Source: Candidatus Saccharimonadota bacterium
GTDB taxonomy: Bacteria; Patescibacteriota; Saccharimonadia; Saccharimonadales; Saccharimonadaceae
Assembly: GCA_017510705.1 (NCBI GenBank)
Contig: JAFWMO010000010.1
Location: 8,678 to 72,677, forward strand
Direction: 5' to 3'
Length of the DNA stretch: 64,000 nucleotides
The position numbers were made by a program, and so were the translations under genes. Positions 4,994 through 56,748 of the stretch are shown one piece after another. The notes beneath the pieces were generated by a model. That model was given only the letters and a program-made list of their open reading frames with translations, did no database searches and was not told the DNA's origin. Numbering within the stretch: position 1 is the first letter of the stretch; every line of letters begins with the position of its first letter.

Positions 4994-4999
4994 GATAAT

Positions 5000-5334
5000 G
5001 AGTCTTCGGTAAGCCGGGTTCTGTAACTCCCGAGGGAGCCGATGATCATCTATCTAGGTGCCGTATTGCTACAAGCACTCGAGCGGTGAGCGTGCGTCCC
5101 CGAGCCGGGGCTGATAGCACTCCTTGCAACAGGTAGGGTTTGCCTCCGCGCTATATCGCTACCGCGCGCTGTGAGCTCTTACCTCACTCTTTTCACCCTT
5201 ACCCCAAAAGGGCGGTATATGTTTCTGTGGTACTTTCCCTATCCTTACAGACGGTCGCCGTTAGCGACTACCCTGCTCTGTGTTGCCCGGACTTTCCTCT
5301 TGGATTACACCAAGCGATCATCTTTCGGACTCTC
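5000..5334 (-). ncRNA. rnpB: RNase P RNA, bacterial type
   Basis: The reverse complement contains GAGGAAAGTCCGGGC, GGTAAGGGTGAAA..GGTAAGAGC.CAC and ACAGAACCCGGCTTA universal motifs. P1 pairs GAGTC with GACTC. Confidence 0.9.
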
Positions 5335-14361: not shown

Positions 14362-14529
14362 AAGCTTTTGCTATGGCAAAAGCTTTCCGTTCCTCCTTGC
14401 TCAAAAAATCTAGAATTTATTCTAGATTTTTATTCGCTTCGTCGTCCGGTCGAACCCTTCGGGTTCTCGCCCTTCTTATCGTGTATCAGAAGATAAAAAT
14501 AAGTCCCTTTGGGACTTCTTTTTATCTTC

Positions 14530-14606
14530 TGGTGGGTGATGAGGGGCTCGAACCCCCGACCTTCTCGGTGTAAACGAGACGCTCTAGCCAACTGAGCTAA
14601 TCACCC
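14530..14606 (-). tRNA. tRNA-Val (anticodon TAC), CCA encoded
   Basis: Cloverleaf GGGTGAT/ATCACCC acceptor, GCTCAGTTGGCTAGAGC D arm, anticodon loop TTTACAC, GGTTCGAGCC T arm. Confidence 0.9.
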
Positions 14607-27519: not shown

Positions 27520-27560
27520 TAATGTTTATGCTAAAATATTATAGTTTTGTCAAATTAACA

Positions 27561-27728
27561 GGGGTAGAATACAGTAAAATTTGTTTGCGGTTCGCTGCAC
27601 GCCACGAACAAAAAAAATAATTTCAGTCAGGTTCTCACCTATATTTCAGTATAGGATTCGAACCTGTGAAATTATTTTCTTGTTCTTGGGCTTGCTCAAT
27701 GCAAACAAATTTTGCTGTGTTCTACACC
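27561..27728. repeat. 168-nt palindromic (MITE-like) element with 28-bp terminal inverted repeats that overlaps the ileS stop codon
   Basis: The TIR GGGGTAGAATACAGTAAAATTTGTTTGC (27561..27588) matches the reverse complement of 27701..27728 at 25 of 28 positions. An internal 81-nt hairpin spans 27606..27686. Confidence 0.7.
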
Positions 27729-30610
27729 TTTTCTAACGAGATTGTGATGTTTTCGCCGTTTACTTTGGCGATTTCATCATAGGCATAATTGCCGTCTAGC
27801 TCTATATTGTCTGTGAGCACTTCGGCTTTGATAAAGTCTAGGTGCTCTGAAGGGGCTTCTACTGATAACGAGAGGCGGATTTTGTCGCCTGGGGCAAGGC
27901 CGGCCTTTTTGCGGGCGGATTGGATGGCGCGGACAAGCTCGCGGGCATACCCTTCCCTCTTTAAGTCTTCGGTGAGAGTTTTGTCTAATTTTAATTCTTT
28001 GCCGTTTGCTACTGATTTGACGTTTACTTCTTCGGCAATGATTTGCTCATAAAAATCATTTAGCTTTTCACCTGGATAAACGAGATTACTAAGTGGCTGG
28101 CGAATCTTGATCTGGTCTTCGGTGTCGGACCTCTGCATACGGAGCGCAAGAGCATCCGTAATGATATTCCTGGTGCGGGCCATCTCTTCGAGAATCTTCT
28201 CATCTATGTTGCCAGCCTCTGGCCAGTCTAGAAGGTGGACAGATTCTTCTTTGCCAGTCATTTTCTGATATAATTCTTCGGCTAAAAATGGTGTAAATGG
28301 CGCTAGGAGCTTGGCTAGATATATTGATATATAATATAGCGTGCTAAAGGCGGCCTTTTTGTCCTCTTTATTTTCGTTTTTACTGAAGCGGCGACGAGAA
28401 CGACGAACAAACCAGTTGCTCATGTCGTCAATGAACGGCAAAACGGTTTCGAGGGCTTTTGGAAGGTTGTATTCTTCCATACCTGCGGTAATATCGTTTC
28501 TTAATTGATATACACGAGACAGAATCCAGATGTCTAGAGGATTTTTCAAAAATGAAACATTTTCTGAAAAATCTTCGGTATTTAGATTTTCTACCTCAGC
28601 GTAGGTGGTGAAGAAGTCGTAGACGTTCCAGATCATGGAAAGTTTGCGGGAGATGTCCGAGACATCCTTATCTAGCATGGCGAAATCTTCGCCAGACATG
28701 ACTGGACTCATAAGTAGCAAAAATCTGTAGGCGTCGGCAGAGTATTGGTCCATTAGGATGTTTGGATCGGTGTAGTTGCCAAGGGATTTGCTCATTTTGC
28801 GGCCATCATTACCGGCAAGAGTACCAGTAGTAATCACGTTTTTGTAGGCATTTTTTGCGCCTTTCTTGGCCTTTTCGCCAAAAGCACCAATGGAGGCAAG
28901 GGCCGTATTTACAGCGTGAACATAATAGAACCACGCACGGACTTGACCGACGTATTCTACAATGAAATCGGCTGGGTAGTTTTTTTCAAACTTCTCTTTA
29001 TTCTCAAACGGATAGTGAAGCTGTGCGAATGGCATAGAGCCAGATTCAAACCAACAGTCTAAGACTTTTTCGATACGAGTGAAATGCTCGCCATCAATAT
29101 CGAATTCAATCTCGTCCACCCATGGGCGGTGGTAATCTTCTAGTTTTTTGCCGGATAGTTCGTATAATTCTTCGTAAGAACCAATGACTTTGATTGAGCC
29201 TTTGTCTCCCTTCCAAACAGGCATAGCAGTAGCCCAGAAACGATCACGAGAAAGGTTCCAATCTGGAGCAGCTTCGATATTTTTGGCGAAGCGGCCGTGT
29301 TTTAGATATTCTGGGAACCAGTTGATATTCTCATTTTCCTCAAGCATCATCTGTTTTTGGCCGTCTATATCAAAGAACCAAGATGGAAAAGCGCGGTACA
29401 TAATACGCTCTTTGGAACGTGGGTTAAATGGGTATTCGTGTTGGATATATTCAATCCTGAAGACGATGCCCTTCTCTTCTAGACATTTGGCGATAAACTT
29501 GTTGGCGGCCCAAATTTGAATACCATTTTCATCAGTGTCGCGGACACCGAGAGCGTGAAGTTTGTCGGCGTATTCTGGCAAGTAATAACCATTCTCATCT
29601 AGAGTATCAATGAAGCCAATTTCGGATTCGTGCTCGCGGTAGAGCCCATAATCATCTTCGCCATAAGCTGGGGCGATATGAACGATACCAGTGCCGTCTT
29701 CTTCACCGACGAAATCTGCGGTAAAGACTTTGCATTTGGTCCCGTCCAATGATTCGTATTCTAAACCAGCAAGCTCAGAGCCTTTGACTACTTTTTCTGG
29801 TTTCTCTGAACCAAAGATTTGTTCGGCGCGTTTTACTGCTACGACCAACCTTTCACCGTCTATATTATATACACCGTAATCTAAGTCTTTTGATACAGCA
29901 AGAGCGCGGTTGGCCATTAGAGTCCAAGGTGTAGTAGTCCAAGCTAAGAGATAAAAATCCGGGGTTTTGAATTTTACATAGGCGGATGGGTCGGTAACCA
30001 TCTGGTAGGCGTCGTTATCCATGGTGACTTCGGCTTTGGAAACAGGTGTCGCAAACTTGGTGTCATACATAAGAACCTTGCGGCCTTCGTAAATTTTTCC
30101 AGCTTCGTATAATTTTTTGAACGCCCACCAAACAGATTCCATAAAATCTTTGTTCATAGTGCGATAGCAATTGTCAAAATCCACCCAGCGACCAACACGA
30201 TCAATAGTACCGCGCCATGCTTCCGAATTAGCAACCATGGATTCGCGAGCCTTAATTATATAGTCTTCAAGAGACCACTTGGTGCCAATCTCACGGCGAT
30301 CGGTAATACCAAGCTGTTTTTCAACAAAATTCTCTGCTGGAAGGCCGTGGCAATCCCAACCCCAACGGCGTTCTACGCGGTAGCCATTCATAGTCCAAAA
30401 ACGCGGGACAGCATCTTTTACCACAGAGCTAAGAAGCGTGCCATGGTGTGGAAGGCCGGTGATAAATGGTGGGCCATCATAAAAAACATAGGATTTGTCT
30501 ATCGGGCGATTTTCAACCGATTTTTCAAAAGTTTTGTTTTTCTTCCACCACTCAATGAGCGATTTTTCGTATTCTATGGCCTTGCGGCGCTCTCCGGCTC
30601 TATATTTCAT
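27722..30610 (-). CDS. ileS: isoleucyl-tRNA synthetase, type 2 (eukaryote-like)
   Basis: YDGPPFITGLPHHGTLL HIGH region, KMSKS and 962 aa. TGGTATAAT lies 7 nt upstream of the ATG. Confidence 0.9.
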   Translation of the reverse strand: MKYRAGERRKAIEYEKSLIEWWKKNKTFEKSVENRPIDKSYVFYDGPPFITGLPHHGTLLSSVVKDAVPRFWTMNGYRVERRWGWDCHGLPAENFVEKQLGITDRREIGTKWSLEDYIIKARESMVANSEAWRGTIDRVGRWVDFDNCYRTMNKDFMESVWWAFKKLYEAGKIYEGRKVLMYDTKFATPVSKAEVTMDNDAYQMVTDPSAYVKFKTPDFYLLAWTTTPWTLMANRALAVSKDLDYGVYNIDGERLVVAVKRAEQIFGSEKPEKVVKGSELAGLEYESLDGTKCKVFTADFVGEEDGTGIVHIAPAYGEDDYGLYREHESEIGFIDTLDENGYYLPEYADKLHALGVRDTDENGIQIWAANKFIAKCLEEKGIVFRIEYIQHEYPFNPRSKERIMYRAFPSWFFDIDGQKQMMLEENENINWFPEYLKHGRFAKNIEAAPDWNLSRDRFWATAMPVWKGDKGSIKVIGSYEELYELSGKKLEDYHRPWVDEIEFDIDGEHFTRIEKVLDCWFESGSMPFAQLHYPFENKEKFEKNYPADFIVEYVGQVRAWFYYVHAVNTALASIGAFGEKAKKGAKNAYKNVITTGTLAGNDGRKMSKSLGNYTDPNILMDQYSADAYRFLLLMSPVMSGEDFAMLDKDVSDISRKLSMIWNVYDFFTTYAEVENLNTEDFSENVSFLKNPLDIWILSRVYQLRNDITAGMEEYNLPKALETVLPFIDDMSNWFVRRSRRRFSKNENKEDKKAAFSTLYYISIYLAKLLAPFTPFLAEELYQKMTGKEESVHLLDWPEAGNIDEKILEEMARTRNIITDALALRMQRSDTEDQIKIRQPLSNLVYPGEKLNDFYEQIIAEEVNVKSVANGKELKLDKTLTEDLKREGYARELVRAIQSARKKAGLAPGDKIRLSLSVEAPSEHLDFIKAEVLTDNIELDGNYAYDEIAKVNGENITISLEKV

Positions 30611-41727: not shown

Positions 41728-44124
41728 TTATAGTTCGCCCCAATTTTGGCCTTGAGATATTTCTACAACCAATTTGACGTTTAGCTCTGGAGCGACGGGC
41801 TCCATTTTGTTTTTAAGAATCTTGGTAACTTCGTCTGCGATATTTTCATCACATTCTACGATAAGAGAGTCGTGAACTTGCATGATTAGCTCGGCTCCAT
41901 CTGGGAGAGCTTTGTCTACGGCGATCATTGCGCGCTTCATAAGATCCGCCTCGGTGCCCTGAATTGGCATATTGGCGGCGGCACGTTCCGCAGCTTGGCG
42001 AATAAGGAAGTTTGGCGAACTTACATCTGGGGTAGGACGGCGGCGACCGTAAAAAGTCTCCACATAGCCTTCGTTTTTGGCCTGAGCCAAAATATCTTCT
42101 AGCTTTTTCTTGATAGGGGCGCGGAGCTTGAAATAATCTTCTATAAAGGTCTTGGCTTCCGCCATAGACATACCGGTAGCGTCCGAAAGTCCTTTCATAC
42201 TCATACCATAGAGTACGCCAAAATTAATAGTCTTGGCGGCGCGACGCTGGTTTTTGGTGACTTCGGTAAGTGGGACATGAAAAGCTTCGGAGGCGGTTTT
42301 GGTGTGAATATCTATATCGTTGTTGAAATCGTCAATTAGGGCTTGATCACTAGATAGGACAGCTGCGAGACGGAGTTCAAACTGCGAATAATCAGCAGAG
42401 ACCAAAACTTTGCCACGAGGAGCAATAAAACCAGTACGAATACGCTTCCCCTCTTCTGTGCGCACTGGGATATTTTGGAGATTTGGGCTAACCGAACTAA
42501 GGCGGCCAGTGGCGGTGACATTTTGCGTAAAGGTGGTATGGACACGACCATTCTTGTCTGCCAAGTCTGACATCGGCATAATGTAGGTGGAAAGAAGTTT
42601 TGCGGCCTCGCGGTATTCGATAAGCTTTGGAATAATTGGATGTACATCTTTTAGTTTTTCAAGCTCTTTGGCGCCAGTAGAGTAACCACGCGTGGTTTTT
42701 TTGATGCCTTTAGTAGGGAGAGCTAAATCTGTAAATAACACTTCGGAAAGTTGTGCTGGGGAGTTGACGTTAAATTCTTTGCCAGCAAGTGCGCAGACTT
42801 CTGTTTCTAATTTTTTGACGATACTTTCATATTCTTTTTCTAGTGACTTGAAATAAGCGCGATCTATGAGCATTCCCTTTTCTTCCATTTTGTAGAGGAC
42901 TGGAATAAGTGGAAGGTCAAAATTTAAAAGTACATCTAGGAGTTTTGGTGTACGTTCTAAAATCGTGAGTTGCTCATGGTAGGCAAAGGCGAAATCTTCT
43001 GGAGCTTCGTCGCTCCTAGAAAGAGGGTTGATGAGGAAAGCGGCTTGAGAGAGGTCCCAAAAGGGCACGCCGGACAAAATCTTTTTGGCAACTGTCTCGT
43101 CTGAATGCATCAAACTCTTGATGTCCCAATCGATGATGGCTGGCGGGGCCTGGCGCTCACCCGCTATCTCGGACTGCGTCGCCTTGCCAGGCTCCGGAGG
43201 CCCGTCGATGGCGGGCTGAGTGCCACCCGCCACACCCTCTTCGCCGCCCGGCACAGATATCTTGCGGATGAGGGAGTTGAATTCAAGTTTTTTGAGGCCG
43301 GAGATGGTACGGTCTCGATCAAAAACAAAATCTGGGATTTTGGCAAGGTCTACAGGGGCGTCAAACATAATCTTTGCGAGTTCGCGAGACATGTAGGCGG
43401 AATTTTTTCCTGCTTCAAGTTTGGTCCGGACTGAACCAGAAATTTGTTCAATGTGTTCGTAAATGCCATCTAGGGTGCCAAAATCATTTAATAATTTGGC
43501 GGCGGTTTTTTCGCCAATGCCTGGAACCCCTGGAATGTTATCGGAAGAATCACCCTTCAAGGCTTTGAGGTCTAAGAACTGAGATTTTTTGATACCATAT
43601 TTTTCTTCTAGCTCTGGGACATTTATTTGTTCAATATTGGTAAAACCTTTTAAGATGCGCCACATGTGAGTGTTGCTATCTACGATCTGAAGCATATCAA
43701 GATCGGAAGAAATGATGAAAGTCTCGTACTCGCAAAATCCGTCTGGGCCTACAGTCTCATCAGCCTCACGACTAAGCGTGCCAATGATGTCATCTGCTTC
43801 GTAATTGTCAATTTCTACGAAAGCCCAACCAAGGTTTTTGATTAGCTCTTTTAGTAGTGGAATTTGAGCATAAAAATCATCTCCAGGTTTTACTCTGCCG
43901 GCTTTGTAATCTGCATAAATTGCACGACGACGCGAGACGGAAGTTTTGGAATCCCAAGCTACTACAACTTTGGTAGGATTTAATTTTTTGACGATTTCCA
44001 TGGCAATGGCCGCAAAACCATAAATGCCACCAGTAGGCGTGCCATCTGGCAAACTAAGTGCCCCCATAGCATAATAACCTCTATAGAAAACAGATTTGCC
44101 GTCGATAAGAACTAAACGCTTCAT
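41728..44124 (-). CDS. polA: DNA polymerase I
   Basis: 5' nuclease domain (LIDGKSVFYRGYYA), polymerase motifs A, B and C (DYSQFELR, RRAAKTINFGVLYG, QVHDSL). Confidence 0.9.
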   Translation of the reverse strand: MKRLVLIDGKSVFYRGYYAMGALSLPDGTPTGGIYGFAAIAMEIVKKLNPTKVVVAWDSKTSVSRRRAIYADYKAGRVKPGDDFYAQIPLLKELIKNLGWAFVEIDNYEADDIIGTLSREADETVGPDGFCEYETFIISSDLDMLQIVDSNTHMWRILKGFTNIEQINVPELEEKYGIKKSQFLDLKALKGDSSDNIPGVPGIGEKTAAKLLNDFGTLDGIYEHIEQISGSVRTKLEAGKNSAYMSRELAKIMFDAPVDLAKIPDFVFDRDRTISGLKKLEFNSLIRKISVPGGEEGVAGGTQPAIDGPPEPGKATQSEIAGERQAPPAIIDWDIKSLMHSDETVAKKILSGVPFWDLSQAAFLINPLSRSDEAPEDFAFAYHEQLTILERTPKLLDVLLNFDLPLIPVLYKMEEKGMLIDRAYFKSLEKEYESIVKKLETEVCALAGKEFNVNSPAQLSEVLFTDLALPTKGIKKTTRGYSTGAKELEKLKDVHPIIPKLIEYREAAKLLSTYIMPMSDLADKNGRVHTTFTQNVTATGRLSSVSPNLQNIPVRTEEGKRIRTGFIAPRGKVLVSADYSQFELRLAAVLSSDQALIDDFNNDIDIHTKTASEAFHVPLTEVTKNQRRAAKTINFGVLYGMSMKGLSDATGMSMAEAKTFIEDYFKLRAPIKKKLEDILAQAKNEGYVETFYGRRRPTPDVSSPNFLIRQAAERAAANMPIQGTEADLMKRAMIAVDKALPDGAELIMQVHDSLIVECDENIADEVTKILKNKMEPVAPELNVKLVVEISQGQNWGEL
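43140..43252. repeat. GC-rich palindromic element inserted in frame in polA (family member A)
   Basis: There is an abrupt GC-rich block inside AT-richer coding sequence. Its arms are GGCGCTCACCCGC and GCGGGCTGAGTGCC. It shares an identical 25-mer, TCGCCTTGCCAGGCTCCGGAGGCCC, with 51540..51564. Confidence 0.7.
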
Positions 44125-49107: not shown

Positions 49108-50060
49108 TTGTCACCTTTTTTAATTTCAATAGTTTTGATATTTTTAAACACTCTGTACTCACCTTCGGCCTGGAGCTCTACTGTGGCGGGCTTTAAAAAT
49201 TCTAACTTGTCGCCAGTGGTTTCTTCTCCTGGCGTACGGACAAAAATCGCTTTTACCATTAGTACGAATAGTCTTGGAAAACTGGTGAGTTTGCGATTCA
49301 TACTGCGAAAAATTTTTGGTTTCAAATAATCATCTCCACCTTTCATCACACGACACATGGACTTGCCGGAAAGCGCGCAATAATCGCTGGCCTTTTTTTC
49401 TGCAGGCTTGCCATTAATGGTAAATGGTGGGATAAAAACTTTTTTGTGGCGGTTTTTGAAATACCATTTTGAAAGAGCAAGATAAGAGCGCCAGGAAGAT
49501 TTGGAACCTTTTTGCATTTTTTTTCTGAATTTTGGCTCATCAAAAATCTCACAGACTTCGGCGGTCATGCCGATGGTCATGTAGCAGGACGCATAGCGGA
49601 AAAACTTGCCATCCACATAAATCTCGAGAGGATATAACCTCTGGACGGGGCCTGCCACACATTTTCCCCCAAATCCGCAGGTCCCAGGGTCCCCCTTATG
49701 TGTGTCACCCGTCCATGTTTCTATTATCTTGAAAAGTTTATCTGTACTCATCGTTCCGAGAGTGCGGGCGAGGTCGTTGAAATTGCCGTATGGGAGGACA
49801 GCAAGTGTGGCGTCTTTGCCAGATTTCAAAATACCATTGGATGCGATAATGCCAGTAGCATCACCGCCGGCAGAAAGCACCAAATCACCATCTTTTAGGA
49901 GCTTGGCAAACTTGGCGGCGTTTTTGTCTACGTCGGTAGGCTCAACTTCGTATTTGCCAATGATAAAACCCTTTAATTCCCTGGCTTTTGACAGAACTTC
50001 TTTTTCTACATCAACAAAACGAGACGAGCGGGGATTGTAAACAATGAGAAGACGGCGCAT
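49083..50060 (-). CDS. diacylglycerol/lipid kinase family protein (DAGK_cat, YegS-like)
   Basis: LLIVYNPRSS start, and the motifs LSAGGDATG and LPYGNFNDLARTLG. Confidence 0.65.
   Translation of the reverse strand: MRRLLIVYNPRSSRFVDVEKEVLSKARELKGFIIGKYEVEPTDVDKNAAKFAKLLKDGDLVLSAGGDATGIIASNGILKSGKDATLAVLPYGNFNDLARTLGTMSTDKLFKIIETWTGDTHKGDPGTCGFGGKCVAGPVQRLYPLEIYVDGKFFRYASCYMTIGMTAEVCEIFDEPKFRKKMQKGSKSSWRSYLALSKWYFKNRHKKVFIPPFTINGKPAEKKASDYCALSGKSMCRVMKGGDDYLKPKIFRSMNRKLTSFPRLFVLMVKAIFVRTPGEETTGDKLEFLKPATVELQAEGEYRVFKNIKTIEIKKGDKCLKVIHG
49643..49714. repeat. GC-rich palindromic element inserted in frame in the lipid kinase gene (family member D)
   Basis: Arms GGACGGGGCCTGCCACACAT and ATGTGTGTCACCCGTCC. 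72 nt equals 24 codons. The terminal motif GACGGGGCCTGCC resembles GGCGGGGCCTGGC of the polA element. Confidence 0.6.
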
Positions 50061-50068
50061 GAGATGTC

Positions 50069-50449
50069 CTATGATGATGGGTTATATGCAGGCAAAAGCC
50101 ATTTGAGAATAGCGTAAAGCACAACATAGGCAGCAACACCAATGACGATTTCTAGCATGCGACGCTTGGCTTTGCGAGTTTGCTCCTCGCTGCCACCAGC
50201 GGTGAGATATTGAATACCAACGATAGTGATGCCAATAGCGGCAAGGATACCGACACCAACGGTGAGGATGTCAACAACAGTTGTAAGAATATCAGTAATT
50301 GAACTGCCTTTACCGTCATCACATACACAGCCATCTTTGCCTAATATTGCTGTCTGTACGCAACCTTCTGGGCATTCAGCAAAAACTGGAGCAGCCATCA
50401 TAAACCCGCCCATAATAACTGCGATAAGTGATAACAAAAGTTTTTTCAT
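50069..50449 (-). CDS. small cysteine-rich secreted/membrane protein, TrbC/VirB2-pilin-like topology (tentative)
   Basis: Signal peptide, the CPEGC..CVC cluster, two hydrophobic helices separated by GGSEEQTRKAKRR; GGAGG SD. Confidence 0.4.
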   Translation of the reverse strand: MKKLLLSLIAVIMGGFMMAAPVFAECPEGCVQTAILGKDGCVCDDGKGSSITDILTTVVDILTVGVGILAAIGITIVGIQYLTAGGSEEQTRKAKRRMLEIVIGVAAYVVLYAILKWLLPAYNPSS

Positions 50450-50457
50450 ATACCTCC

Positions 50458-51432
50458 TTACCTTAGATATTCGTGTAGTTTTTTGGTGTCTTTGTTTTTG
50501 CGAAGTTTAGAAAGGGCTTTGGCTTCAATCTGACGGATACGCTCACGAGTAACATCAAATTCGTTGCCAACTTCTTCTAGAGTGTGCGGACGACCACCGC
50601 CGATGCCAAAGCGAAGGCGGATGATTTTTTGTTCCCTTTCGGTGAGAGTGGCAATAATTTCGGACAATTGTTCCTTCAAAATTTGGTTTGCGGCGGAATC
50701 TTCTGGGGAGTCGCGCTCCTCGTCTTCTACGAAATCACCAAGCACGGAATCCTCGTCGTCGCCCTCGCGACCAACAGAAGCATCTAACGAGGCGATATCT
50801 TGTTTGATGCGCATCACATAATCCACCTTTTCTGGCTCCATGTCGAGTTCCTTGGCGATTTCTTCGTTGGTAGGCTCACGGTTTAATTCTGAGGTGAGTT
50901 TGCGAGTAGTACGAAGGACTTTGTTGATGGTTTCTACCATATGCACTGGAATACGAATGGTGCGGGCTTGATCTGCAATAGCACGAGTAATAGCTTGGCG
51001 AACCCACCAAGTAGCATAAGTAGAAAACTTAAAACCTTTGGCTGGATCAAATTTTTCTACGGCGCGGAGGAGACCGGTGTTTCCCTCTTGGATAAGATCA
51101 AGAAAATCTAGACCGCGGCCACCATAACGCTTGGCGATAGAAACCACAAGACGCATGTTTGACTCTACCATTTTGTCTTTGGCTTTTTTGTCACCCTTTA
51201 CGATACGCTGAGCGAGATCGGCTTCTTCTTCTGGGGTAAGAAGTGGGATTTTGCCAATTTCGCGAAGGTATAATCTAACTGAATCATCTGCAAAAGCATC
51301 AACGTTTTCGGCGGTGATGGCAAGCTCTTCGTCCGAAAGCTCTTCTTCGCTTTCAAGGTCGTCTGTGCCAGGTTCGTCAAAATCAAAATTCAAGTCTTTT
51401 GCATTCAAAATATCATCATCTTTCAAGCTCAT
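50458..51432 (-). CDS. rpoD: RNA polymerase sigma-70 factor
   Basis: Regions 1.2 to 4.2 are present ([49 protein letters not shown]). The start is set at ATG 51432, directly behind the promoter. Confidence 0.9.
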
Positions 51433-51440
51433 TAATGTAG

Positions 51441-51469
51441 AGTATAGACTAAAAATAGAAATTTTGCAA
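51441..51469 (-). promoter_or_regulatory. rpoD promoter TTGCAA-17-TATACT, 8 nt upstream of the ATG
   Basis: The reverse complement reads TTGCAA, then 17 nt, then TATACT, then CTACATTA, then ATG. Confidence 0.6.
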
Positions 51470-51470
51470 G

Positions 51471-51587
51471 AGCGGACTAACGCGCCCGTCTTGGGCTGCG
51501 TCGCCTCGGCCCGTCGCCACGGGCGAGGCGCGCTCATCCTCGCCTTGCCAGGCTCCGGAGGCCCTGCGACGGGGCGTTAGCTCCGCT
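51471..51587. repeat. GC-rich palindromic element (family member B) between dnaG and rpoD; provides the dnaG stop codon
   Basis: 20-nt terminal inverted repeats AGCGGACTAACGCGCCCGTC and GACGGGGCGTTAGCTCCGCT. Internal hairpin CGCCTCGGCCCGT/ACGGGCGAGGCG. The 25-mer is shared with the polA element. Confidence 0.75.
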
Positions 51588-53211
51588 GTAAATCATAGAT
51601 TTTTTTCATGATTTCTTCGTATTCTTCACTTTCTTCATCAAGTTTAGAAAGTTGCTCGTTTAAGGCGGAGATTTGTTGTTTTTTGGATTCCCTATCATAT
51701 AGAGCTAGGAGGTCGGAGGCTTCCTTTTCGTAATCTGTGTCTTTGATATTTTCGTGATCGCGATTGAATACCAATTCTAGCTCATCCAATTTAGCATCAT
51801 CTTCTGGCGGCTCAAAAGGAATTTTAGTTTTGGTGACACCGCCAAAAATCTTGAGGGCCAAGAGACTGTCTTCGTATTTTTTGAGTTTATCGGATTTTAA
51901 TTCGGTTTTTGGCTTTTTGAGATAACGGTGTGAGACGGCCTGTTCTAGTTTTTTGTTCAGCCTCTCACCTTTTTCGCGCAAAATTTCTACTTCTACATCT
52001 AGTTTTTTAGCGACTTTTTTCTCGTAACTAGCGCGTTCTATTTCGTCGTTTACGAAGCTGAGGAGCTTTAAAGCAACGTCGGAATATTGTTTTTTGCCGG
52101 TAGCAGTGCGAAGATCTAGATTTTCTTCGTATTTGTTTAAAAGCCAATCCACCGCCGGCACGCGCTCTTCTACGGCCTGTTTCCAGAGATTTGGATCTTT
52201 CTGGATGAGCTCGTCTGGATCTTTGGCGCCATGGTAATTGGAAATTACAGAAAGATTAATACCGAGGTCGCCAGCAAGCATAATGGCGCGTTCGGTGGCT
52301 TTGACTCCAGCTTCGTCTCCATCATAGGCAAGACGAATATCACTAGTAAGATTGGACAAAATTTTGAGGTGTTGATCTGTCATGGCGGTACCAGAAGTAG
52401 CTACGGCCTCTCTGACGCCAGCTTGGTGAGACGATATAACATCCATATTGCCTTCTACAATCACGACAAAACCATTTCTGCGAATGGACTCCTTGGCGTT
52501 GCAAAGGCCAAAAATAAAACGAGATTTGTTGAATAAAATCGTATCGGAAGTGTTGAGATATTTTGGCTCACCCTTGCCAATAATACGCGCGGTAAAGCCG
52601 ATAATATCGCCACCAGTATCAACAAACGGAACCGTCATGCGATCACGAAACATATCGTTGTCGTAGGCACTTAAAAGGCCGGCGGTTTTTAATTCTTCTT
52701 TTGTAAAGCCGCGTTTTTTTAAGGCTTCGTAGAGCATCTTTCCCTGCCCGGGGGCATAGCCAATTTTGAATTCAGAAACAGCCCAGCGATTGAGATTGCG
52801 TTTATAAAAAACGTATTCACAAACAGTTTTATTACGGACAAGACAAGCTTGATAATATTTGGTAGCGAGGGCTAAAGCTTCCTTGGCACGAGCTTTTTTC
52901 TTGGCAACATTAGGATCGCCACCGCGATATTTGGTAATATCTACACCGGCACGAGCGGCAAGTTTTTCTAAAGCCTCTTTAAAACTAATCCCTTCTACTT
53001 CCATAAGGAAGGTAAAAATATCACCGCCTTTGCCGGCGGAAAAATCATGCCAAATGCCCTTTTCGGGAGAAACCATGAAACTTGGGGTTTTGTCTACACC
53101 CCAAGGAGAACGGCCTTTGAGATTTCGGCCTGCACGTTTTAGCTCCACATACTGCCCCACTACATCTTCCACCGCCAGTCTGGATTTGATTTCCTCCTTC
53201 AGATCGTACAT
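51577..53211 (-). CDS. dnaG: DNA primase
   Basis: DKTPSFMVSPEKGIWHDFSAGKGGDIFTF zinc-binding-domain homolog without Cys/His ligands; TOPRIM domain (IVEGNMDVIS, YDGDEAG). Confidence 0.85.
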   Translation of the reverse strand: MYDLKEEIKSRLAVEDVVGQYVELKRAGRNLKGRSPWGVDKTPSFMVSPEKGIWHDFSAGKGGDIFTFLMEVEGISFKEALEKLAARAGVDITKYRGGDPNVAKKKARAKEALALATKYYQACLVRNKTVCEYVFYKRNLNRWAVSEFKIGYAPGQGKMLYEALKKRGFTKEELKTAGLLSAYDNDMFRDRMTVPFVDTGGDIIGFTARIIGKGEPKYLNTSDTILFNKSRFIFGLCNAKESIRRNGFVVIVEGNMDVISSHQAGVREAVATSGTAMTDQHLKILSNLTSDIRLAYDGDEAGVKATERAIMLAGDLGINLSVISNYHGAKDPDELIQKDPNLWKQAVEERVPAVDWLLNKYEENLDLRTATGKKQYSDVALKLLSFVNDEIERASYEKKVAKKLDVEVEILREKGERLNKKLEQAVSHRYLKKPKTELKSDKLKKYEDSLLALKIFGGVTKTKIPFEPPEDDAKLDELELVFNRDHENIKDTDYEKEASDLLALYDRESKKQQISALNEQLSKLDEESEEYEEIMKKIYDLQRS

Positions 53212-55072: not shown

Positions 55073-56748
55073 TACATTTCCTCCGGGATTTCAATTCCCA
55101 AAATATTTAGTCCGTGAGTCATAACGTTCAAATATTTTTCTACAATCTTGGCGCGTTCGGCTTCTTCTGGGGCACCAGCGACTGGGCAATTTTCGTAAAA
55201 TCTAGAAAATTCTTGGGCGAGTTCGTAGAGGAAATTCGCAACTTTGTGTGGGGCCATCTCATTTACAGCTTCGGACAATACATCTTTATACCCCAAAAGC
55301 TTCTTCATTAAATTTCTTTCAAATGGCGTCAGAACATTCGCACGCGAACCGCTTCGCTCACGCCCATCGTTATGGGGTTCGCTTGCTAGAAGCTCCCCGT
55401 TGGTCGCTATGTTCGCTTTGCGAATGTTCTCGACGCCTGCGAGGATCTTTTTGGCGCGGACACAGGAGTAGAGGAGGTAAGGGCCGGAGTTGCCGGTCAT
55501 TTTGACCGATTCTTTTGGATCAAAGATGATGTTGCCGCCCATTTTATATTTCAAAAATGCGTACTTAGTGGCAGCGAGAGAGACTTTTTTGTCCTCGGAA
55601 TTATATTCGTTTTTTAACTCGTCTTTTACCATATTTAATACATCTACGGCTTTCAAGAAATTGCCTTTTCTGGAAGACATTTTGACATTGCCTGGGAGTT
55701 TGACGAGGCCGTGAGTTAGGTGAGTGGTCTTTTTTACAAGTTCTGGCGCATATTGTTCTATGGATTTCAAGACTACCTTCATGTATTCGAGCTGTTCGTT
55801 GCCAGTGATGACGACGGATTTATCAAAATGATAATCTTCCCACTTGGTGAAGATAAGACCAACATCCTTTGCCTCGTAAGTTGGGACACCTTCTTTGTTG
55901 ATAAACACGCGGGTATGGAGGCCGAATTTGTCACCATTGAAAATAACAGCGCCATCGCTCATTTCGTAAACGCCTTTTTCTAATTGTTCTTTTACTGTCT
56001 GGAGGCCAAGAGCGGCTACGGTAGATTCTGGGTAATACTTATCAAACTTGATACCAATGGTGGCGTAGAAATTTTTGAAATAATCGTAGGATAGTTCCCT
56101 GCCTTTCCAATAAAGGTCTGAGAGCTCGGTGCCATGGATGTCTTCGGCGTTTATCTTGTAAATCTCTTTGTTCAAATCGGTGATTTCGGCTTTGGCCTTA
56201 TCATCATCTTCGTAAGCGGTGGTGCCCTCAATATAACACTTGGCAATATCTTCGATAGTTAGGTCTTTGATGTCTTTTTGTTTTAAGATATACATGGTTT
56301 TGGCGACGTGAAGACCAACATCACCGCCGAAATTGGCACGAATTACGTTGGCGCCGGCGTACTCGTAAAGACGGCTGATGGAGTCACCCATAATGGAAGT
56401 GTAGAGATGCCCGACGTGCAGAACTTTGAATGGGTTTGGATCGCTAAATTCACAAATGATAGTCTTGCCCTCAAGGTCGCCGCAGGATAAATCTAGGGTA
56501 TCTATTGAATTCTTTAATGCATCGTCCGCAATGGTAAAGTTAATAAAACCTGGTGCAGTTGGAGTGCCGATATTCAATTCTTCGGCGATTTGCATCGGGG
56601 CTTTGTGAAGCACGCTAGCGAGCTTTAGAGGGGCGTTTGAGGAATAATCCGCGTCGATATTTGCCGGAGCAGCGGTAATTTCGGGATCAAAATCAAGGTT
56701 GTATAAATTTTTGATAGCATCTTTTAATTGGTTCTCTATCTCTTGCAT
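55072..56748 (-). CDS. argS: arginyl-tRNA synthetase
   Basis: The HVGH (HIGH) motif, MSSRKG (a KMSKS-like motif) and a DALR-type C-terminus. TGGTATAAT lies 6 nt upstream of the ATG. Confidence 0.9.
   Translation of the reverse strand: MQEIENQLKDAIKNLYNLDFDPEITAAPANIDADYSSNAPLKLASVLHKAPMQIAEELNIGTPTAPGFINFTIADDALKNSIDTLDLSCGDLEGKTIICEFSDPNPFKVLHVGHLYTSIMGDSISRLYEYAGANVIRANFGGDVGLHVAKTMYILKQKDIKDLTIEDIAKCYIEGTTAYEDDDKAKAEITDLNKEIYKINAEDIHGTELSDLYWKGRELSYDYFKNFYATIGIKFDKYYPESTVAALGLQTVKEQLEKGVYEMSDGAVIFNGDKFGLHTRVFINKEGVPTYEAKDVGLIFTKWEDYHFDKSVVITGNEQLEYMKVVLKSIEQYAPELVKKTTHLTHGLVKLPGNVKMSSRKGNFLKAVDVLNMVKDELKNEYNSEDKKVSLAATKYAFLKYKMGGNIIFDPKESVKMTGNSGPYLLYSCVRAKKILAGVENIRKANIATNGELLASEPHNDGRERSGSRANVLTPFERNLMKKLLGYKDVLSEAVNEMAPHKVANFLYELAQEFSRFYENCPVAGAPEEAERAKIVEKYLNVMTHGLNILGIEIPEEM
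55328..55434. repeat. palindromic GC-rich element inserted in frame in argS (member C)
   Basis: Terminal inverted repeats GTCAGAACATTCGCA and TGCGAATGTTCTCGAC. Internal pairs GCGAACC/GGTTCGC and CCCAT/ATGGG. It encodes ENIRKANIATNGELLASEPHNDGRERSGSRANVL. Confidence 0.65.

Follow-up and report, generated by a model that had tools for sequence, protein, structure and literature searches.

The short interval between dnaG and rpoD on Candidatus Saccharimonadota contig JAFWMO010000010.1 is occupied by a GC-rich palindrome that reaches into both neighbours, raising the question of whether it belongs to these genes, as a terminator or another host signal, or arrived from elsewhere. We analyzed it within a stretch of 64,000 nucleotides, referred to here as the window, to which all positions refer unless another sequence is named. 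The palindrome is one copy of a family of small palindromic repeats in gut Saccharibacteria, apparently undescribed so far, and at dnaG-rpoD it is best seen as a tolerated passenger that neither gene seems to require.

Comparison with alleles of the relatives L034, L036 and L037, from which the element is absent, places its boundaries at 51470–51586 (117 nt, minus strand), one base off the 51471–51587 given by the earlier note. The G+C content of the element is 74%, against 42.9% for the whole window. Its transcribed strand folds at -80.3 kcal/mol, compared with -57.3 +/- 3.6 for shuffled sequences (z = -6.4; 0 of 200 shuffles as good), and it scores 124.8 bits with the covariance model of the family. 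The 20-nt terminal repeats described earlier are present. The rpoD-side arm, AGCGGACTAACGCGCCCGTC (51471–51490; the "left" repeat), and the dnaG-side arm (51568–51587; the "right" repeat), which reads AGCGGAGCTAACGCCCCGTC on the minus strand and includes the codons CGG AGC TAA, form pairs at 19 of the 21 positions aligned, each side having one single-base bulge; neither arm recurs in the window, and 100 shuffles gave 0 matches. The arms are GC-rich, unlike the local sequence, and the idea that they are plain copies of the host flank was rejected on this ground. Between them lies an inner hairpin, P2 (51502–51530), which is not a continuous 13-bp stem, as first described, and consists of 12 bp plus one bulge (CGCCTCGGCCCGT / ACGGGCGAGGCG). 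The base of P2 is a hypervariable stem that covaries between copies, and its tip, CCCGTCGCCACGGG, is conserved across all subfamilies. The adjoining segment, CGCTCATCCTCGCCTTGCCAGGCTCCGGAGGCCC (51531–51564), is the invariant asymmetric part of the core and includes a small hairpin, P3. Within it, the 25-mer TCGCCTTGCCAGGCTCCGGAGGCCC (51540–51564) recurs exactly at 43179–43203 inside polA, as had been noticed.

The dnaG C-termini and the dnaG-rpoD spacers of relatives, whose comparison the earlier note proposed, reveal the site without the insert. Empty alleles, with a single TTGCAA and a spacer of 16–23 nt, were found in two relatives. In L034, whose RpoD is 91% identical, dnaG ends GAC TTG CAA AAA ACC TGA and rpoD begins 23 nt on. 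In L036/L037 the sequence is AAC TTG CAA AAT CCA GCG AAA TAG TCTATACTTTACATTA ATG, and this lineage is 99% identical to the window in DnaG and 98.5% identical in DNA over 7.6 kb. The DnaG of the empty alleles ends with Leu-Gln and two to four further residues, and 117 of 120 relatives have a C-terminus of LQ plus zero to four residues; among these 120, tails of the element type were found only for the window, for P0007/P0017 (LQRG, then stop) and for P0008 (LQREGRRPR, then stop). A promoter TTGCAA-17-TATAAT or TATACT that overlaps the Leu-Gln codons is conserved in all genomes compared at dnaG-rpoD.

Alignment of these alleles indicates how the insertion was accommodated. The window reads GAT TTA CAG CGG AGC TAA, then the element, then CTC TTGCAA AATTTCTATTTTTAG TC TATACT, so that the extra DNA amounts to 122 nt: the 117-nt element and a second TTRCA. 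The proximal copy of this target pentamer, TTACA (51587–51591, minus strand), makes the codons TTA CA- of Leu-Gln, and the distal copy lies in the TTGCAA hexamer at 51464–51469 (minus strand), which encodes the DnaG Leu-Gln in the empty alleles and is the -35 box of the rpoD promoter. The element hit a hexamer that served as both the DnaG Leu-Gln codons and the rpoD -35 box. The dnaG coding sequence (51577–53211, minus strand) now ends CAG CGG AGC TAA, and its present stop (51577–51579) comes from the element arm, inside the right repeat. The proposal that this repeat encodes the last three residues and the stop of DnaG is supported with one refinement: as the empty alleles show, the element donates the third base of the Gln codon, Arg-Ser and TAA, and the rest of Gln, like the Leu before it, is host sequence. 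The old dnaG tail and its TAG stop now lie downstream of the element, out of frame; the relic TAG at 51449–51451 (minus strand) corresponds in the alignment to the dnaG stop codon of the empty L036 allele, likewise TAG.

On the other side, the element adjoins the rpoD -35 box, as proposed, the box beginning one base beyond it. The -10 box, TATACT (51441–51446, minus strand), follows after 17 nt and is TATACT or TATAAT in L036, L038, L040 and L034, and the promoter as a whole spans 51469–51441. With TTGCAA-17-TATACT intact beyond the element, both dnaG and rpoD stay functional. The N-terminal extension of the rpoD reading frame (51433–51537) was correctly recognized as an artefact: its ATG at 51537 falls within the element, and the 324-aa RpoD of relatives begins at an ATG matching 51432, which sets the coding sequence at 50458–51432 (minus strand; ATG 51432–51430). 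On the same strand, between 51430 and 51579, the frame after the dnaG TAA stays open for 48 codons through the element and the spacer into the rpoD ATG, and readthrough of the single TAA would yield a DnaG-RpoD fusion. This is probably chance, as one frame in three would connect the genes and the GC-rich insert is poor in stops.

The filled allele recurs in at least three independent assemblies and is therefore not an artefact. Both alleles are represented among samples, the empty one in XIEF21-1 SAMN15830012 and the filled one in SAMN15830013. L038/L039, with a DnaG only 81% identical and ending LQRG and stop, carry the same insertion, with homologous arms and a core of the same subfamily (family A). 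The arms of L038 and the window differ at three positions, each mirrored on the opposite arm, and both bulges are kept. L040, a close relative of the L038 lineage, carries at this point another palindrome, which resembles subfamily B, and its DnaG ends LQREGRRPR and stop.

The ~1.5% overall difference between the window and L037 is concentrated in three patches. The patch at the dnaG site covers 51452–51610, and the 24 nt to the left and 9 nt to the right of the element are ~40–100% different. The tail of DnaG in the window, IMKKIYDLQ, resembles that of the filled allele L038 (IVKEIYELQ) about as well as that of the empty allele L036 (ILIKIRNLQ). The second patch is an argS element (window 55200–55500, L037 768–921), a subfamily-B-like palindrome at the same codon in both strains, where the arms are wholly different and the right flank has diverged over ~100 nt, forming a hypervariable patch. 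We infer that short element-bearing patches, including the filled and empty dnaG alleles, have been exchanged between strains by recombination. The third patch has no connection with the repeats and covers the N-terminal half of a pilin-like protein. In this T4SS-pilin-like gene (50069–50449), the N-terminal half has been swapped at window 50200–50400 (126 vs 143 residues); this presumably exposed half differs and the C-terminal half is identical between the near-identical strains. A 155-nt length difference between L036 and L037 was rejected as an insertion, being a run of N from scaffolding, and an exact-protein look-up for the polA of the empty-allele strain matched the window's own strain only.

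The palindrome is a full-length copy of a repeated element, as first proposed. Searching 185,579 species genomes for exact matches to the invariant 22-mer GCCTTGCCAGGCTCCGGAGGCC, we found 35 loci in ~22 metagenome-assembled genomes (MAGs), every one of them from Candidatus Saccharibacteria or Nanosyncoccus and mostly from the ruminant gut. Metagenomes contributed 9 further loci, and viral contigs contained no match to the 22-mer core, giving no sign of phage carriage. A covariance model (R1) built from 32 copies was then run on the 64-kb window and on 259 kb of loci; it detected 3 copies in the window (dnaG-rpoD, polA and argS) and 48 in the 259 kb, that is, 51 in ~323 kb. Rfam searches of the whole window at the gathering score and of the element at E up to 10 gave no match over the element, and the literature search found no report of such repeats in Saccharibacteria or Patescibacteria.

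A copy consists, in order, of an arm; CTCGGGCTGCGT; P2 with its variable stem and the tip CCCGTCGCCACGGG; CGCTCATCCTCGCCTTGCCAGGCTCCGGAGGCCC, including P3; TTCGA; and the complementary arm. No variation is seen in the 34-nt core segment among 32 copies, drawn from more than 20 species, which is partly ascertainment because the segment contains the search 22-mer. In diverged subfamilies the only common sequence is the hairpin at the P2 tip, CCCGTCGYYACGGG. The arms are different at every locus, yet complementary within each copy, and it is the asymmetric core and not the 20-nt terminal repeat, which the earlier note wished to count genome-wide, that defines the family. Because the arms differ in this way, a census based on the terminal repeat would have found nothing: allowing up to 3 mismatches, the dnaG arms gave only self-matches in the window, and an arm-plus-junction query gave no match in JGI metagenomes. 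In the material searched, these arms occur elsewhere only at the orthologous dnaG site of the L038 lineage. Short tip motifs, GGCGGG(T/G)CCTG ... CACCCGCC, recur in many copies, but only in a subset, and the trmD, lepA and der copies are without them. At four loci (L022 975–1144, L005 5766–5980, L025 425–636 and L038 4560–4745), an extra palindrome of 35–80 nt is present at the P2 tip and looks like a nested insertion into the hairpin loop.

The second family-A copy in the window (43142–43231, 90 nt, 35.8 bits) lies in frame in polA (41728–44124, minus strand), between the 5'-nuclease and polymerase domains. It is without P2, as first described, because 42 nt have been deleted between two CGCCT direct repeats. 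The third copy (55312–55449; 23.6 bits, E = 1.7e-5) belongs to the diverged subfamily B and lies in frame in argS. A decayed relic is found in a DAGK-like gene at 49643–49714, where L034 and L022 have intact copies at the same site. The argS and DAGK-like genes of the window had been candidates for empty sites, which was rejected in view of these diverged or decayed copies. An inverted-repeat scan of the window detected no family members beyond the covariance-model matches.

Most copies lie inside genes. Forty of the 51 are in frame within long intact open reading frames (ORFs), 19 in sense and 21 in antisense orientation, and the hosts are housekeeping genes: lepA, trmD, ychF, der, tsaD, argS, polA, obg (at two sites), a DAGK-like gene, pheT, typA/bipA, priA, truB and genes for FtsJ-type and RlmKL-type methyltransferases. 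Among the 11 copies outside long ORFs, several touch gene ends, as at dnaG. The copies are read in five stop-free frames, three sense and two antisense; the sixth, which has a TGA, is never used, which argues that the ribosome reads through the copies rather than that they are removed. This preservation of frame suggests that they are translated with the host protein.

The trmD gene of L016 has an empty orthologous site and is 102 nt shorter than the filled genes, and obg has an empty site in L018; the orientation of the core is opposite between species at three orthologous sites (trmD in L035, lepA in L004, and der in L032 compared with L033); and different subfamilies occupy one site in different species, as at obg site A and dnaG. 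In Obg, the loop between VY[R/K] and LIADL is empty in one of the species L006, L012, L016, L018 and L025 and each of the other four has a palindromic insert of its own there (family A, family B and two further kinds). Most of these species also have an insert at a second Obg site, close to the C-terminal domain. A gene of the RlmKL/N6-N4-methylase-like type (~450–475 residues) has two in-frame copies in each of two species, L028 and L005. Model matches are also dense there, with four within 3 kb at L028 2353–5190 and three within 2.1 kb at L005 4674–6759.

The pairing of the arms and the inner stem is maintained across copies in 97% of cells, compared with 82.8% in shuffles. In these regions, 156 cells are Watson-Crick double changes, against ~5 with one-sided (wobble) changes, and the covariation score is 0.386, compared with 0.127 for shuffles and at most 0.108 for slid controls. 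The predominance of Watson-Crick double changes, together with the equal use of both orientations, points to hairpins at the DNA level rather than to the structure of one RNA strand. Cores at orthologous sites are 84–100% identical even when the ascertained 22-mer is excluded, whereas the flanking coding DNA is 59–84% and the arms 59–77% identical; being better conserved than its flanks, the core is not decaying junk and needs ongoing copying or conversion, or selection on the core itself. The P2 stem is identical in 4 of 12 pairs of different loci from the same genome, against 17 of 465 pairs in the background (p = 0.001), and the arms of such pairs differ. Identical arms at two loci, which would indicate recent transposition, were not seen among the copies.

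Each of the three available empty sites has a short inverted repeat at the insertion point: TTGCAA at dnaG, and AGCA-N6-TGCT and GACGAT-N6-ATCGCC (5 of 6 positions) at the others. These three cases, with their short repeats, are only a hint that short palindromes may be preferred targets. The palindrome often extends into AT-rich or coding flanks (L003, L034, L013 and L028; obg in L006 and L016), and at some loci (obg in L006 and L016, trmD) the outermost bases of the arms, and only these, copy the host flank. TTACA and TTGCA flank the dnaG copy and TTGCA stands on both sides of the copy in L010; at dnaG this is equally an inverted repeat, since the target TTGCAA is a palindrome. Direct target duplication was rejected as a general feature, the flanks being mostly inverted (L034, L003, L013 and L028). 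No transposase or other mobilising enzyme was identified in the loci examined.

Several explanations of the dnaG-rpoD element have to be weighed against this evidence. Its hairpin is very stable and may have been co-opted as an intrinsic terminator of dnaG, as the earlier note suspected, or as a 3'-end stabiliser, and would then shield the rpoD promoter from readthrough; such a role would be compatible with a mobile origin, and we consider it possible though rather unlikely. The stem can be extended into the flanks (UUUACA/UGCAAA), to be followed by AUUUCUAUUUUU, and only with such an extension is there a U-rich run; a consensus scan finds no terminator at dnaG-rpoD. Over the 17 nt past the hairpin, all three filled alleles are rich in T (10, 9 and 12 T), unlike the two empty ones (3 and 3 T), which weakly favours termination, although this stretch codes for protein only in the empty alleles. 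The three covarying positions and the retained bulges of the L038 arms also speak for a maintained hairpin, but pairs change from G-C to A-T with almost no G-U, unlike an RNA selected on one strand. The hairpin is, moreover, absent here from the 98.5%-identical strain and from most relatives, and the same element lies in both orientations inside 40 ORFs, where termination would be harmful. Even so, the T-rich tract of the filled alleles could mean that this copy has been put to use. The 40 intragenic copies bear as well on a quite different proposal, that the element is excised from the transcript or from the protein, as a small intron, an archaeal-type bulge-helix-bulge intron or an intein-like insert would be, a view that would suit the interruption of essential genes at conserved positions and the strong, conserved and covarying secondary structure. 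We regard this as highly improbable: all of them are frame-keeping and stop-free, and an excised element would not face the filter that keeps the stop-bearing frame from ever being used. Both orientations are equally common, there is no Rfam match, the unit is far too small for known self-splicing introns, and the encoded peptide changes with the frame, so that it is not an intein.

The conservation of the core invites the view that it is a host DNA signal, such as a site for a nucleoid, topoisomerase, replication or methylation protein, forced into genes by the scarcity of intergenic space, a role previously proposed for BIMEs or CIR repeats. The core is indeed more conserved across species than the neighbouring housekeeping codons, the invariance of the 34-nt segment (partly ascertained through the 22-mer) spans more than 20 species, pairing is kept on both strands, and copies are regularly spaced, at roughly one per 20 kb. 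Single copies are nevertheless dispensable, given the empty sites at dnaG, trmD (L016) and obg (L018); copies degenerate where they stand, like the DAGK relic and the polA copy with its deletion; different subfamilies with different cores occupy the same site; and no protein is known to bind the core. A general signal function thus seems very doubtful. A classical cut-and-paste MITE, with terminal inverted repeats bound by the transposase of a related insertion sequence and a 5-bp direct TTRCA duplication, would have the right size, palindromic shape and copy number, the common tip motifs of many copies and the TTACA/TTGCA and TTGCA flanks at dnaG and in L010. What makes this class improbable is that every locus has its own arm sequence between tip and core, that many copies (trmD, lepA and der) have no tips at all, and that the flanks are usually inverted rather than direct repeats. 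Core variants are common to loci of one genome without their arms, and an insertion sequence with matching ends was not seen in the ~400 kb examined.

We therefore favour, as quite probable, a family of ~100–140 bp GC-rich, non-autonomous palindromic repeats, confined to a Nanosyncoccus-like clade of gut Saccharibacteria, that behaves like Rickettsia palindromic elements (RPE) and REP-type repeats. The properties of the copies suggest a hairpin-based single-strand DNA mechanism or copying of the core only. In such a scheme the family would act at the DNA level as a hairpin or cruciform, and the part recognised and copied would be the asymmetric core, chiefly the tip hairpin CCCGTCGYYACGGG. The locus-specific arms could be kept complementary by template switching, by arm-to-arm conversion or by selection for hairpin formation, and exchange between the arms could invert the core. 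New copies would land preferentially in short palindromes and would survive in genes only if they kept the frame and added no stop.

A narrower reading, which we put forward tentatively and think unlikely as it stands, is that the mobile unit is only the ~78-nt asymmetric three-way core, which would enter the centre of short palindromes or hairpin loops again and again, facing either way, with the arms as locus-specific landing pads. Landing sites would then include arms left by earlier copies, and flanking host sequence would be the source from which hairpin-templated synthesis builds or lengthens the arms. If true, the element would be one of single-strand DNA that targets hairpins, has no conserved ends, can colonise essential genes and is still active across many Saccharibacteria species; this would explain why the cores look younger than their host genes, the Watson-Crick-only covariation, the orientation flips, the mixture of subfamilies at single sites and the core variants found within a genome without shared arms.

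Within the favoured RPE-like and REP-like class, a first close parallel is RPE: palindromes of 105–146 bp that form in-frame fusions with many conserved genes of Rickettsia and that, in the case of gmk, have been shown to be translated (PMC2229807, PMC10969869). As these two accounts present the work of Ogata et al. (2000, 2002), RPEs are palindromes of 100–150 bp in a host-dependent bacterium with a reduced genome; they occupy intergenic sites and also, with unusual frequency, in-frame positions within conserved housekeeping genes, are translated with the host protein, have no known transposase and are uncertain as to target duplication. The Saccharibacteria copies resemble them in lying in frame in intact housekeeping ORFs (40 of 51), translation being suggested here by the frame. 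The two families belong to different phyla, all 22-mer matches being Saccharibacteria, and show no apparent sequence relationship. On the same accounts, roughly half of the RPE copies are intragenic, against ~78% here. The Saccharibacteria element is GC-rich, its conserved part is an asymmetric core and not the ends, its arms are locus-specific, and it uses five open frames in both orientations, with no single conserved peptide.

The GTAG/CGTC REPs offer a second parallel (PMC3733652). They are small hairpins with heterogeneous but complementary stems; some lie in ORFs, notably of replication and repair genes, their ends often give the neighbour's stop codon, some families sit within short palindromes, and no transposase is known for the CGTC families, to which some RPEs belong. 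The Saccharibacteria tip CCCGTCGYYACGGG contains CGTC as well. REPs and REPINs, however, are 20–40 bp single hairpins or head-to-head dimers with terminal GTAG/CGTC and are mostly extragenic, whereas the Saccharibacteria unit is a larger, three-armed ~78-nt core plus arms, with CGTC inside the P2 hairpin and not at an end. The 107-bp form of Correia elements, ERIC and YPAL are likewise stem-loop repeats of 100–170 bp that can be fused in frame or co-translated with the upstream gene and can alter mRNA ends; they differ in that their terminal inverted repeats are conserved, that they have direct duplications of TA or other sequence, and that their copies are mainly intergenic (PMC2229807). Judged by its 117 nt and its copy number (51 model copies in ~323 kb; 35 exact-core loci in ~22 genomes), the family is within the range of MITEs, dispersed repeats of less than ~300 bp that encode no transposase, but its arms are complementary only within each copy and differ between loci.

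Quasi-palindrome correction by template switching (the Ripley model) is a mutational process and not an element family. It would explain the two-sided Watson-Crick changes of the arms, the palindromes that reach into the host flank and the inversion of the core, and we offer it here only as a process that would keep the arms complementary. We class the family as RPE-like in behaviour, set apart by its phylum, which is new for such repeats, by the conservation of its asymmetric core and by arms specific to each locus.

Palindromes inside genes have been seen as a peculiarity of Rickettsia, with one Wolbachia case, and now appear in the unrelated, ultra-small, host-dependent Saccharibacteria of the candidate phyla radiation, which suggests that the colonisation of essential genes by small palindromes is a recurrent outcome where genomes are reduced and intergenic space is scarce. 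The movement of RPEs and CGTC-type REPs is still unsolved, and the present family provides clean material for its study: filled and empty alleles at 98.5% identity, a conserved core and covarying arms. It also affects annotation, through false starts (rpoD), altered gene ends (dnaG) and inserts of 30–60 residues in housekeeping proteins, and its copies mark hypervariable patches in strain comparisons.

In Rickettsia, RPEs have invaded both tmRNA and RNase P RNA, unlike the window genes for these RNAs: the tmRNA (1299–1656) and RNase P RNA (4995–5333) are full length in Rfam, and no repeat copy was detected in them. Two other inverted repeats of the window deserve mention. The one at 27557–27732 is nested and AT-rich, has no sequence relationship with the GC-rich family, and consists of 32-nt outer arms that are 88% complementary and inner arms at 27611–27681; its centre has a tRNA T-arm-like GGATTCGAACC, and no tRNA or Rfam family was called over this interval. 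A long imperfect hairpin with 49-nt arms (~-68 kcal/mol) at 14459–14559 overlaps the 3' side of the tRNA gene at 14533–14606.
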